A DNA stretch of 59,761 nucleotides, counting the filler, from Basidioascus undulatus (lineage: Eukaryota), in assembly GCA_000826855.1 (NCBI GenBank). It is 4 parts of 4 records of this genome, joined end to end, with 100 filler letters (N's around TTAATTAATTAA, not from the genome) between each part and the next. Parts side by side here need not be neighbours in the genome. Positions count along the whole stretch, not along the records: positions 1 to 14,877 come from JTLS01000685.1; 3 more parts are not named here. The stretch is one strand, 5' to 3'. The translations under genes were made by a program, and so were the position numbers. Under the pieces are notes generated by a model, which ran no database searches, had not been told where the DNA came from, and saw only the letters and a program-made list of their open reading frames with translations. Of this stretch, positions 1-44,910 are shown in pieces. Within the stretch, counting starts at the first letter, position 1. Each line of letters starts with the position of its first letter.

Positions 1-226
1 GCTCAGCTGTGCTGAACTGTCTTGTGACTCGCTCACGATCAGTGGCTCACTCTGTTCTCTCCTCTCGACCACCCCCCATTCCCTCGAAGCCTCACCACTC
101 TCGTATTACCCGCTCTGTACATCTCCAAACTCACACTTCGCACTTCGAAATGCTCGCTCGCACCTTCAGTCGAATCCTCCATCGCTCTCGCTTCGCTCGC
201 CCTTCGACGTTACTCTCGGTCTCAAT

Positions 227-1350
227 GTGCCGGCAATGTGGACTTCCGCGCTGCTTACGCCCATCGTTAAACTCTATCAAATGGCCGCTGGCTTATCGGT
301 TCACCGAACCTATTCCATTGCCGCGACTTCGCCTTGGGCGGCCGCTTTGCTGGCCAACAAAGACGAGGAAAAGCTGAAGTACTTATGCAGTCGACACCTT
401 TCACGGGACAAGACTGAGCTCTCTGTTTCACTGGACGATGAGTTCCACGATCACTTCCTCGATTCCTCGTATCAAGTTCTCGACCATCTGTACGACAGCT
501 CTTCTTTGGGCGCCCGGATCGAATCCTTCGAGATGCTTTGGTGGGAGGTGTCTATGTCTAGTGATGTCGAGGCCCAGGGAAGAGACGGGTGCAAGCTTGT
601 GAGTTCAATTATATTCCAAGTTCCAAAAACAGGAGAGACTGAGCAAACTCAATTGCTATTGCAGTACATTCGCCTCACCACCGAGGCATTGCACCTGTTG
701 CCCAATCTGCATTCGCTCAGACTCGATGCTACTCGTGGGACCTGGACTTTCGACTTCGCAGGAAGCTGCTTTCCACAACCGCCTCGCTGCCCTACCTCGA
801 GTTATACGGCACTGGCCTTCACAAACCTCCTCCGTTGTTCGACCGTCTTGTGGTACCCGTCCAAAGGAACTCACCCTCTCCGTGTCAGCGTGGACCGGAC
901 TGGAGATCGATTACGCACGGCACTGGAATAATTTCATGAAGGGGGAGGGGCAACGGCTCGAGCGATTGGCGGTCGACTTCTTCGACTTCTTCGGGGTCGT
1001 GTACCTCTTCAATCACGAGTGCAATTCGGAGTCCCCTCCTCTCTTCATCAGGCGCCCGAGATACTCCTCAACGGAGCGGAGCTTCCTGCTCTCCACGAGA
1101 TTGCTGTGACGCGCTTGATCCTACTGGACCTTGACAGTATCCTCAATGACACGGAGGGTTATAAAATCGCACGCCGGGAGGATGATGATGGCCTTGAACG
1201 CTGATCCAAAAGCAACGTGGGGCAGGCCAAGGTCCAGGAGCTCTGAAAAGATACCTTGTCTTACTACGCTGCGGTCGGAAACTGGCTTAAGGGACGATTT
1301 CCGGAAGTCAAGGGGTGGAAGGTCGAGACTCGGGAAAACGTTGTGATCTC
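227..1350 (+). pseudogene. Degenerate F-box/LRR-like hypothetical gene fragments
   Basis: Staggered overlapping ORFs (227-931, 726-1109, 1019-1204) with LRR-like phrases (ALHLLPNLHSLRL, LERLAVDF, LPALHEIAV); no clean splice signals link the frames. Confidence 0.3.
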
Positions 1351-2700
1351 TCTCCCTCTCTCACTTACACCGTCACCCGCGCCTGAAAGTACTTTCCCTT
1401 TGTTGAATTTGCAAACCATCGCATTTTGCGCTTTTAATCGCTTGAAATTGGGTTATCTTCAAGACTGCCTGTCCCAAACGTACTGCAAAGTGGTGATGCT
1501 GACTGTTGGCGTCATTGCCTACACTCATGGCAAGTTGAGGCACTTGGGAAGAATTGACGTCTTTTTTTTTTTCAATGGTCTAGTGGGGACATACTTCAGC
1601 GGCCGGTCATTGGCTGCAGCAGTGAGAGGTCGGACAGCATGTCGGACACTCCCTTACCCGGATAGTGTTATGTCATCCCACTAAGTGAAATATACGTAAA
1701 GTATGCTGGTGGTGGACTGCACTGCAGTAGTCTCACTGCTGCGTAGCCAGGGGCCTGTCGCCGCGCAGGCCCTTGGCTCTGCATGGCGTTCCTGCCCCCT
1801 TCCCCACTGTGACTATGTCAGTGGAAAAATTATGACTCTGCCTTTTGGATGTCCTGTCAGGTAACGGTGCCCAACAAACACGGTGCTTTTTTGCTTTTAT
1901 GTTTGCGCGATATCCGCTTCCAACAGGCGCAGTCATCGTCTGTGTCACGGTCATGTCCTCGGGCATGCCAGCCCCTTTTACTTCCAGTGTCTGGGCCAAA
2001 TTGAAGATACCCTGAAGAATACATTTTCAAGCCGCACGAGCTCAAGGGCATGAGGCCACCTTCGTCGAGCGCCACGGTGGGCCCTCGCGCGGCTTCCACC
2101 GCCACAGCGTTTAGTCAGGCTCGCGACTCGCAGTACAGAAGTGTTCTCGAGATTAAGTACCAAGACTGCAATGGGGTATCGTTTGATCAGATACACTTGA
2201 AGAAAACTCCAGGTATTCACTGTTTTAAGACTATATGTATTCCGCTGTGCGTACGGCAAGGCTGTAGAGCCTGCATAGGCAAGCGACGAACTAGACAGCG
2301 TCGTCAGTTCTGTTTTCCAAACGTCCATCATGATGAATGGTATGGAGCGTCTGTATTTTTCGCATGGACGCCGCACAAGCGGTACTTGGGGTTACCGTGA
2401 GCAGAGCAATCAAAGCATCGCCCCGCCCGTTAGGCAGCTCAGCGACACTGAGCGTCATTTGAGACATTCCCTTGCCCTGTGTTGGGCTTAGATCGAGAAT
2501 CTCTTAAAGCTCTAGGTGCCTCAAGCTGACCATCCAAGCTGAGTGCCTGTCGAGACCGCTTGAGCGGGTCGACCAGCGCTCGGGACCTCACACGTCCTCG
2601 CCTCTCCCCTCCCGTTCCGCTGCGGGTACCCCATCCCCCCATCCCAAATAAAGATCCCCAGGCCTGCACAAGTAAATACGGACTGGAAATATGCGAGACG

Positions 2701-3112
2701 TTCCCCACCAAAAGGCGGGTACGCGGGCTTTTATACAGGAGAGCCGACATGTCACACAGCGGGGTCAGACGCGTCCTGTGGAGGAGATTGCACTGGGAGA
2801 CCATCCGTCACGAAGGGGTACAATACCTGAATCACCCCTATACGGCGGTGTCCAGGCTAGGACCCGACTCCGCCTCAGGCTTTTGGGCCCGCGCTGACCC
2901 CGAGTGCCGCCCGCCTGCTGCCGGAGCCCGGAGAAAGGGGATGGATTTGGATGGGATGGGGAGGTGGTGAATGCTAATAGGGATCCGCGCCATTAAGTGT
3001 AGGATCAGGGAAGGTGGAAGGGAGACGATGAAATTCAAGGACAGCTAGCTGTGGCCGGAGGAGGAGGAGGTTGCCGGTGGAAGAGAAGCGGGTGGCATCG
3101 GGGCGTGAAACG
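2701..3112 (-). repeat. Copy A of a ~400-bp dispersed non-coding repeat (inverted relative to 12814-13216)
   Basis: Reverse complement aligns with 12814-13216; 32-nt exact block 2887-2918 = revcomp of 13003-13034; further exact blocks ACAGGAGAGCCGACATGTCACACA and CAGACGCGTCCTGTGGAGGAGAT. Confidence 0.9.
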
Positions 3113-12019: not shown

Positions 12020-12813
12020 TATAATAGAGTATTATTGGTTTGCTGGTAGATGGACGAGTGTGAAGGTGAAAGTACGAGACCAAAAGGAGTTCAAGGCGAA
12101 AGGCGGCGAGACGCGTGGAAGGCTCCGCGTTTGATGTCGTTCGGGCCGGTGCCGCCGCCGATCTGAGTGCTGCATGGACTTTCATACCATCGGCAGCCGC
12201 AATTTCAGTCTATTTCTTTACGTTGCCCGTACCTATTTGTGTGAAAAGAACAGAAAAGTCCTTTCAAGCACGCTCAACAAAACAGCCAGATTGCAACGCC
12301 GCATAGCCCTTGCATTGAACATCCCATATGGGGGGATGCAAGTCAGCCCTAATAAGCCCAAGGTCTTCCACAAACACTACAGTGAAATGGCCAAGAAGGT
12401 GAGTGCTGCATCCAAACCCCTTTCCACTGTGGAATCCTTTTTTCACCCACTAACTCCCTTGGAGGAAGTACATGGTGCTCCCCTTCCGGCAAAACTGGTC
12501 AAAGGGCTGGCCAAAGATACAGCCCCTTAACAGACCACATGTTGCATGACTGGTGCATAAGGTAGATGGACGTCATGATGCTGTCCAGGTAAGAACTACC
12601 GCGCCTGCGCAACTTTGCGCTCAAAGGCTGTCCAAGAAGCCCACCCGTCCACCTCACTTCCCGCGTTTCCGCCGACATCAGGCTTGTGGAAGGCCACAGC
12701 CCAGGTGCGAAGTTCCCGACAGATAGGACATGAAGAAATTATATCAGAATAGTAACACAGCAGCCAAGAATTCTCTGTCACGTCGCGAAGGAACGACTTC
12801 GCCGGCGCCCCCG

Positions 12814-13216
12814 CGTTTCACACTCGGTCGTCACCACTCACCTCTCTCCCATCGACCACCACCTCCGCCTCCGGCTTCGGCTGTCCTGGGCTTTCAAAGT
12901 CCCCTTCCCCCTCCGGTGCTTCTTACCCTCATTTTGAGGGCCTGCCGTTTGTCACTTCCACATTCCCATCCGTCCTTTCTCCCCTTTCTCCGGGCTCCCG
13001 CGGCAGGCGGGCGGCACTCGGGGTCAGCGCGGGCGCAGGAACCTGGGGCGGAGTCGGTCCCGGCCGGACCCCGCTGCATAAGGGTGATCCTGTGTCGTAC
13101 CCCTTTGTGAAGGATGTTCCCCCAGTGCATCTCCTCCACAGGACGCGTCTGGCCCCGTTGTGTGACATGTCGGCTCTCCTGTCTAAAACCCCACGTACCC
13201 GCCCTTTGGTGGTGAA
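12814..13216 (+). repeat. Copy B of the ~400-bp dispersed non-coding repeat
   Basis: Inverted homologue of 2701-3112; core 12980-13216 roughly 85% identical by eye, 12814-12960 more diverged. Confidence 0.9.
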
Positions 13217-13758
13217 TTCTAGTCTAGAGCTTTCTTGATTATTTTGTATTGATGTAGGAGCTGGTTAAGGATATGAAGTGGGGGTGGGTGGGTTGGTGGG
13301 ACTGTGGGACGTGAAGGGAGGGGGGACGCCCTGTCGGCGCAGCGCCGCTGCCTGGTGAGTGCTCGTCTGCGTGCCCAGTCAGTCCTTGCAGAGTGTCAGC
13401 TCAGCCAGGACATGAGAATAAAATGGCATGATGGTACAGGTTTATGGACCCTAGTCTCATCCACGAGCTCATTTGTCCCACCACGGCCTAGCTGATAGGT
13501 GGGTTGAACGCTCGAACTGCACACGGTGTCTGCTTTCCCTTGCCCAGCACGCCTTGACACTGTTACAGTTCAGGGCGCCATGACCCAACGCAGAAGAACC
13601 CTTTCCATATTGCTGAGAAACCCCTCGATGTTCATGCCCTCCCACTCACTCTCTCCGATTGCACATTGCAGGGCGGACATCGGCCGTTGCCAGTTTCACG
13701 CTTCCGGCGCTGCATTAGTGTGTGTCGTCAGCGAGAATGGGGTTTTTCAGAATCGCGT

Positions 13759-14877: not shown

Positions 14878-14977
14878 NNNNNNNNNNNNNNNNNNNNNNN
14901 NNNNNNNNNNNNNNNNNNNNNTTAATTAATTAANNNNNNNNNNNNNNNNNNNNNNNNNNNNNNNNNNNNNNNNNNNN
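14878..14977. other. Artificial contig spacer
   Basis: 44 N + TTAATTAATTAA (stops in all six frames) + 44 N. Confidence 0.98.
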
Positions 14978-29852: not shown

Positions 29853-29952
29853 NNNNNNNNNNNNNNNNNNNNNNNNNNNNNNNNNNNNNNNNNNNNTTAA
29901 TTAATTAANNNNNNNNNNNNNNNNNNNNNNNNNNNNNNNNNNNNNNNNNNNN
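29853..29952. other. Artificial contig spacer
   Basis: 44 N + TTAATTAATTAA + 44 N. Confidence 0.98.
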
Positions 29953-44810: not shown

Positions 44811-44910
44811 NNNNNNNNNNNNNNNNNNNNNNNNNNNNNNNNNNNNNNNNNNNNTTAATTAATTAANNNNNNNNNNNNNNNNNNNNNNNNNNNNNNNNNN
44901 NNNNNNNNNN
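44811..44910. other. Artificial contig spacer
   Basis: 44 N + TTAATTAATTAA + 44 N. Confidence 0.98.

Follow-up and report, generated by a model that had tools for sequence, protein, structure and literature searches.

Two inverted copies, A and B, on a contig of about 15 kb from Basidioascus undulatus represent a real non-coding element in two old, diverged copies. Our preferred reading, which is tentative and to which we assign a probability of roughly one in three (0.35), is that they hold the 5′ LTR, the priming site and the leader of an LTR retrotransposon that is not primed by a tRNA and that carries a self-priming-like structure. The window, meaning the whole stretch of DNA that was analysed (59,761 nt), consists of four pieces of ~14.9 kb in order of falling length, and both copies are located on the first piece. 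N-linkers with a six-frame stop separate the pieces (14878-14977, 29853-29952 and 44811-44910), and no feature may be taken to span a linker. All results rest on n = 2 copies. Among the 120 matches listed for a myotubularin frame on the second piece, the best named ones belong to Basidiomycota but reach no more than 58-67% identity, which suggests a basidiomycete source with no near relatives in that collection, presumably shared by the first piece.

Alignment of A (2701-3095) with B (13216-12834) gave 78.1% identity over 397 columns (E 9e-77), and this is the sole long self-match within the window. The result bears out the preliminary description, which had reported 2701-3112 and 12814-13216 as inverted homologues with no credible ORF in common: the core contains four gap columns (2+1+1) that break the frames, and stops occur in the frames. 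No third copy was found in the window with nhmmer. Beyond the element, the flanks of A and B are unrelated, and both copies are directed toward the contig ends, which are 1.7 and 2.7 kb off.

Random pairs (n = 100) set a baseline of 46 ± 3% identity with a maximum of 52%. Relative to this, identity between the copies amounts to 117/240 columns upstream of 12814, 21/23 at 12980-13002, 144/169 (85%) at 13003-13167, 44/49 (90%) at 13168-13216, 81/142 (57%) at 13217-13350 and 143/281 past 13350. The alignment score of the 5′ part (12814-12979) was reached by none of 200 local shuffles and that of the tail by 11 of 200. This weak similarity, which extends to ~13350 in B and ~2570 in A, was absent from the preliminary description. 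Soon after the core (Table 1), G-run tracts of the G-quadruplex type occur on the sense strand of each copy (13280-13325, +, in B; 2659-2629, −, in A); the window holds 28 such relaxed motifs.

Table 1. Coordinates of the features of copies A and B within the window; helices are predicted and LTR assignments are candidates.
Feature	Position	Strand	Counterpart in copy A	Basis or observation
Copy B, homologous stretch as first described	12814..13216	+		self-alignment
Copy A, homologous stretch as first described	2701..3112	−		self-alignment
Pyrimidine-rich 5′ part; U3-like (as an LTR) or promoter-like (as an ncRNA gene)	12814..12979	+		64% identical to A, 112/176 columns
Conserved core of B	12980..13216	+	2941-2701 (−)	85-90% identical, ~240 nt
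Weakly similar tail: T-rich, G-rich with G-quadruplex motif, 14-nt polypurine run 13313-13326	13217..13355	+	13-nt polypurine run from 2613	81/142 columns
5′ arm of 13-bp closing helix	13019..13031	+	2902-2890	pair probability 0.8-1.0 in each copy
3′ arm of closing helix, one bulged U	13144..13157	+	2773-2760	one U-A/U-G difference between A and B
Inner hairpin H1; 5′ arm 13045-13051 alternatively pairs with 13199-13205 (7 bp)	13045..13075	+		fold prediction; G-C in B, A-U in A
Invariant 4-bp hairpin with CCAC loop, adjoining the closing helix	13132..13143	+		pair probability: A 0.86, B 0.01, joint fold 0.76
Terminal hairpin	13199..13212	+	2718-2705	probability 0.48 in B, 0.99 in A
Candidate 392-bp LTR of B, ends TGTCAC...GTGACA (6-bp inverted repeat)	12776..13167	+		inferred from termini
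Invariant GTGACA, candidate LTR 3′ end	13162..13167	+	2755-2750	both copies
Invariant 15-mer right after CA, at the primer-binding-site position; no TGG start	13168..13182	+	2749-2735	both copies
Invariant 14-mer, imperfect pairing with 13168-13182; candidate self-primer	13003..13016	+	2918-2905	both copies

The F-box-like frames at 1-1700 (+) and 14877-13759 (−) run off the contig ends, each with its 3′ end facing a copy. One of them has a Pfam F-box-like match at E 0.16, and the other we take to be F-box-like. Between the copies lies a spliced beta-galactosidase gene (9814-3870, −; Pfam BetaGal_ABD2, E 1e-16), the extent of which was read from frames. A frame at 3573-3375 (−) has a start that is presumably D-2-hydroxyacid dehydrogenase-like but loses this likeness after ~65 codons, 260 nt upstream of A; no continuation was seen down to 1600, and no family was confirmed for it. 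The frame upstream of B matched three repetitive proteins only and nothing in Atlas.

Pair probabilities were predicted for each copy folded alone and then for the two jointly as an A/B alignment. The pairing proposed for B between CGGGGTCAG (13019-13027) and CTGGCCCCG (13149-13157), and the corresponding CTGACCCCG in copy A, were all found in place. The closing stem common to A and B comprises 9 bp, a further 4 bp past a bulge and 4 bp outside, predicted at 0.8-1.0 in each copy; that the helix runs 4 bp further inward (CGCG/CGCG past one bulge) and ~16 imperfect bp outward had been missed. The nested hairpin of GGCGG (13047-13051) with CCGCT (13071-13075), enclosing GGTCC/GGACC, is located where it had been described and is predicted in B (0.98) but not in A folded alone (0.01). 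It reaches a probability of 1.0 only in the joint fold, and the inner domains of A and B fold differently when each copy is taken alone. The motifs of the outer helix and of the terminal hairpin are likewise present, but the two structures cannot coexist because both use the same CCGCC; the predicted probability of the outer helix (GGCGGG 13006-13011 / CCCGCC 13198-13203) is 0.38 for B and 0.01 for A, and it is 0.0 when the aligned pair is folded. The joint fold contains 69 predicted pairs, with 10 altered on one side and 2 on both.

The preliminary description had named a folding energy no better than that of shuffled controls as an outcome that speaks against a structured element. This is what we found for copy B (z +0.44; 135/200 shuffles as good), and copy A is mildly better than its shuffles (z −1.95; 5/200). 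The opposite strands gave z +0.51 for B (137/200 as good) and −1.73 for A (8/200), and folds of the whole element fell between −0.75 and +0.8. The longest ungapped helix, counting Watson-Crick pairs only, was reached by 129/150 shuffles for B and 19/150 for A. The columns that differ between the copies number 25/98 in the inner part and 9/143 outside it (p = 4.5e-5), so that the arms are spared, and the three longest invariant runs are by themselves not unusual (p = 0.065). We also considered whether the purine-rich tail pairs over a long distance with the pyrimidine-rich 5′ part, and rejected this as compositional: 8/300 shuffles reached it for A and 142/300 for B, and swapped pairs were equally stable.

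The joint fold has an energy of −86.5 kcal/mol on the sense strand, which is the strand favoured in the preliminary description, versus −76.1 kcal/mol on the antisense strand. When the same substitutions were re-placed at random, an equally stable sense fold arose in 9/150 runs starting from A and 1/150 starting from B, and the corresponding antisense counts were 40/150 and 13/150. Restricting the substitutions to blocks gave 37/250 from A, which is clearly not significant, and 0/250 from B, with the strand difference reached in 25/250 and 7/250 runs. The proposed wobble-based asymmetry between strands stands in size, but its significance is just moderate and it vanishes with DNA parameters, under which the strands are equal (−33.7 vs −33.0). 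Two copies cannot show covariation, and the two double changes were reached by 138/500 shuffles. The conserved complementary arms and the substitution nulls lend moderate support to an RNA-level fold on that strand, probably single-stranded, as had been proposed; against it stands the ordinary energy of copy B.

The case for a retrotransposon starts at the termini of B. TGTCAC at 12776 lies 38 nt before the clear A/B homology begins, a second TGTCAC occurs in B at 12950, and the TGTCAC terminus is absent from copy A. Both strands of the window together hold 17 GTGACA sites; a TGTCAC is found 330-450 bp upstream of two of them, and these are the pair of B read both ways. Among random CA sites, 100 of 1171 have a 6-bp terminal repeat 200-520 nt upstream. 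B also has a rival terminal pair (TGTGGA 12685 / TCCACA 13140), in which case the 13-bp stem would be the primer duplex. No tRNA-type site is apparent, as no TGG start occurs 0-5 nt past any CA in either core. The candidate primer duplex has 13 pairs, including 3 G-U, with 1 mismatch and 1 bulge, and because this imperfection is identical in A and B it is not the product of decay. Among 489 random CA sites, at least 69 have a duplex energy as low as its −17.5. None of the 12 CA sites of the two cores is followed within 0-5 nt by a perfect complement of 10 nt or longer; the longest measures 6 nt and lies in B, and copy A has none of that length or above.

Either copy could form, by prediction, duplexes of 13 bp and 7 bp beside the primer-binding-site position, at distances of 10 and 16 nt. 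A three-duplex score around the CA, which was devised after the data had been seen, came to −67.8 and −67.3 on the sense strand and −57.1 and −59.2 on the antisense strand; 2/150 shuffles reach the score of each copy, and 1 of 488 window tiles exceeds it. The crossing helix 13045-13051/13199-13205 carries the sole Watson-Crick double change among shared helices with at least six Watson-Crick pairs, and such a change was reached in 28/150 and 16/150 null runs. Downstream of either copy no second LTR was found, none of 17 frames matched gag or pol, and a target-site duplication was not assignable. An open frame downstream of A (2391-1978, −) has no database match and a structure model with pLDDT 33; its W..L...L..RY.P pattern we take to be gag-like, as in retrotransposon capsids.

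We hypothesize that A and B stem from two related subfamilies of an LTR retrotransposon, of which they are old remnants. Each copy would still carry the 5′ LTR together with the primer-site position and the first part of the leader, with the remainder lost or diverged. Selection for the fold would have acted on genomic RNA while the ancestors were active, and not at the present loci. By likeness to Tf1, transcription would start near 13003, and the first ~14 nt of the RNA would anneal to the 15 nt right past the final CA of the putative LTR (13168-13182). The bases that follow (13019-13031) would zip up with the U5 end (13144-13157), and a third, crossing duplex between 13045-13051 and the leader (13199-13205) may form in competition with the two local hairpins. 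Reverse transcriptase would then cut the 5′ end of this same RNA and extend it, and no tRNA would be involved.

The self-priming elements Tosmo1-3 and Tcry1, and Tj1 as regards the ends, have TGTCA...TGACA termini and LTRs of 392-406 bp, and in self-priming fission-yeast elements a three-duplex 'pretzel' forms around the primer-binding site (PBS), with divergence in U3 and just past the PBS (bioRxiv 10.1101/2022.12.06.519325). The element resembles this Tf1/sushi group (Tf1, Tf2, Tj1, Tosmo1-3, Tcry1) in the TGTCA...TGACA ends and 392-bp length of the candidate LTR of B, a post-CA sequence that can pair inside that candidate LTR, two predicted flanking duplexes and the U3/post-PBS divergence. 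Unlike in the group, the primer duplex here is imperfect and wobble-rich, A is without the 5′ terminus, and no TATA box, second LTR, 5-bp target duplication, gag or chromodomain-bearing pol was seen. As a criterion for self-priming, 10 nt or more of the LTR should be perfectly complementary to the PBS, which lies 0-5 nt past it (PMC6317226), and Tf1 requires perfect complementarity (PMC5445492). The element may work like the Tf1 leader, yet it is not assignable to the Tf1 group: the searches turned up neither a perfect 10-nt complement nor a second LTR, gag or pol. Self-priming has also been proposed for Cryptococcus Tcn1 (PMC7175516, PMC4600332, PMC2864245).

The Conserved Hairpin Site of GalEa (Copia) offers a second comparison (PMC5445492). 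Like this site of the fungal GalEa elements, the copies have no tRNA site, a conserved block over the (here candidate) LTR end and a palindrome that crosses the last bases of the LTR, which here is GACATGTC. They differ in that the GalEa 9-mers are absent here and in that the pairing partner lies upstream within the candidate LTR, versus 12-41 bp downstream in GalEa, an element which that source reports from Pezizomycotina only. Unfavourable to the retrotransposon reading is that two remnants both have the PBS side and lack the interior, where solo LTRs would be more expected; S. osmophilus has 63 solo LTRs versus 15 degenerate ones (bioRxiv 10.1101/2022.12.06.519325). The preliminary description had left a choice between the end of a mobile element and a new ncRNA family. 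Neither is established, and the former fits somewhat better because of the LTR-like termini in B and the priming-site-like layout.

The main rival, which we consider possible but unlikely, is a pair of paralogous genes, A and B, that encode a structured, lineage-specific ncRNA of ~240 nt (12980-13216) with a long closing stem, a multi-branch top and a 3′ hairpin. The sequence upstream would be a decayed promoter and that downstream a terminator region, selection would act at the present loci, and the RNA would be a protein-binding scaffold. The peaked profile, with conservation highest in mid-element and in both complementary arms, fits such genes equally well, the joint fold favours one strand, and there are only two copies in 60 kb. 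The failure of B to fold better than its shuffles and the different inner domains of the copies folded alone argue against this rival, as does the lack of a positive marker or of a family signature common to the copies.

The searches for known RNAs bear on the same point, and they agree with the earlier impression that no tRNA, SRP or RNase P pattern is present. Nothing in the window matched an Rfam family at the gathering score, and relaxing the cut-off to E ≤ 10 near the two copies yielded 2 and 3 chance matches, none of them to ribozymes; ARAGORN returned nothing, and no tRNA cloverleaf was found. The hammerhead motif CUGANGA is absent from both copies, and a loose HDV descriptor matched 6 and 8 times on the strands of B and 0 times on those of A. 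None of the motifs examined for RNase P/MRP (CR-I/CR-V P4), U1/U2/U5/U6, Sm, box C, TPP or group I P7 is common to both copies. The same holds for Pol III boxes; a T4 run occurs in A only, and there is no tail. The telomerase template (CCCTAA/TTAGGG) is absent from the copies, and the 4-bp hairpin with its 4-nt CCAC loop is unlike telomerase P6.1, which has a 4-bp stem and an NUNGN loop (PMC3592445).

Basidiomycete RNAs may evade standard models, and this speaks for the RNA genes: the SRP RNA of basidiomycetes was overlooked by such models for years (PMC4605306). The element resembles that RNA in size class, long closing helix, branched top and being missed by Rfam, but the copies are without its 5′ UGUNR Alu loop, poly-U end and A-containing apical loops, and the helix-8 A-C/G motif is not common to A and B (PMC4605306). 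RNase P/MRP RNA is detected by Rfam in Auricularia (PMC9849065); we judged its detectability in basidiomycetes from this source together with PMC1636426. In the main text of a survey of fungal motifs, basidiomycetes go unmentioned (PMC5640933).

No homologue was found in any outside collection scanned, which counts against an RNA family, but these collections contain few fungi. In viral contigs, four DNA patterns gave 3, 10, 1 and 0 loci, none of which aligns past ~25 nt. One metagenome scan returned 7 loci, all in the coding DNA of one bacterial gene, presumably serC, with the pattern in other spacing. Prokaryote genomes gave 0 loci for two patterns, and nothing beyond short chance pieces turned up in phage and plasmid records. 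It is likewise possible but unlikely that the core still functions as a structured RNA, of a family not yet described and from a poorly sampled basidiomycete lineage, switching between a nested fold (the inner and terminal hairpins) and a pseudoknot by means of the covarying 13045-13051/13199-13205 helix. If derived from a retroelement, such an RNA would represent wobble-tolerant self-priming outside the Tf1 rule.

Less probable, in our judgment, is an old local inverted duplication, the core of which was conserved for its DNA sequence, as promoter or enhancer sites, or homogenised by gene conversion, with helices that arose by chance in a stretch of 67% G+C. The ordinary folding energy of B, the frequency of long helices in shuffles and the non-significant block-restricted null from A are what such a duplicate would give. 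Each copy also faces the 3′ end of an F-box-like frame, the core has two 8-bp DNA palindromes, and A has TATAAAA. The flanking frames, however, are without mutual similarity, no run of the block-restricted null from B reached the observed fold, and the clustering of differences between the arms is unlike an even conversion tract.

Quite improbable is a Helitron 3′ end (a hairpin plus CTRR, read on the strand that is displaced) or a SINE-like repeat of which the central domain is conserved. Helitrons were recognised by a 3′ hairpin, 5-8 nt and CTRR, with insertion before T (PMC4289320, PMC11417382). As in the canonical 3′ end (HLE1) of these sources, B has a GC-rich terminal hairpin (G-T allowed), a 6-nt spacer and then CTAG followed by T at 13219, where identity falls. 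Three of the 20 hairpin-plus-CTRR sites followed by T in the window are in B (13219, 13261 and 13352, +), within 135 nt, but none is in A, and looser criteria give 67-361 sites in the window. The site at 13352 has a perfect 5-bp Watson-Crick stem. At the matching place A has CTCG, which resembles the motif but is followed by C; there is no 5′ TC border, and 240 nt are conserved versus ~30 nt in HLE1. The cut-off frame upstream of A would suit such an element, but similarity continues past 13222, DNA parameters give no strand preference, and no RepHel or RT was seen in the window. Direct repeats of 7 bp bracket each copy (12768/13214 and 3138/2526), which also speaks for this reading; about one per search is expected by chance, and the 3′ repeat of B aligns with similar letters in A. 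In both copies the upstream repeat is followed by C and then (T/A)GTCA. A SINE-like origin is further disfavoured by the lack of Pol III boxes and tail. A composite transposon with A and B as its ends was rejected, as no duplication of at least 4 bp was found at the tested lengths.

If the copies are remnants of an LTR retrotransposon, the finding would be a modest one, a remnant suggestive of a less stringent priming structure than that of Tf1. It would bear on basidiomycete elements such as Tcn2-5, the priming of which is described as unexplained (PMC7175516). If A and B are instead a pair of RNA genes, they would add a new family to the RNAs of fungi, from a phylum in which even SRP RNA was long missed.
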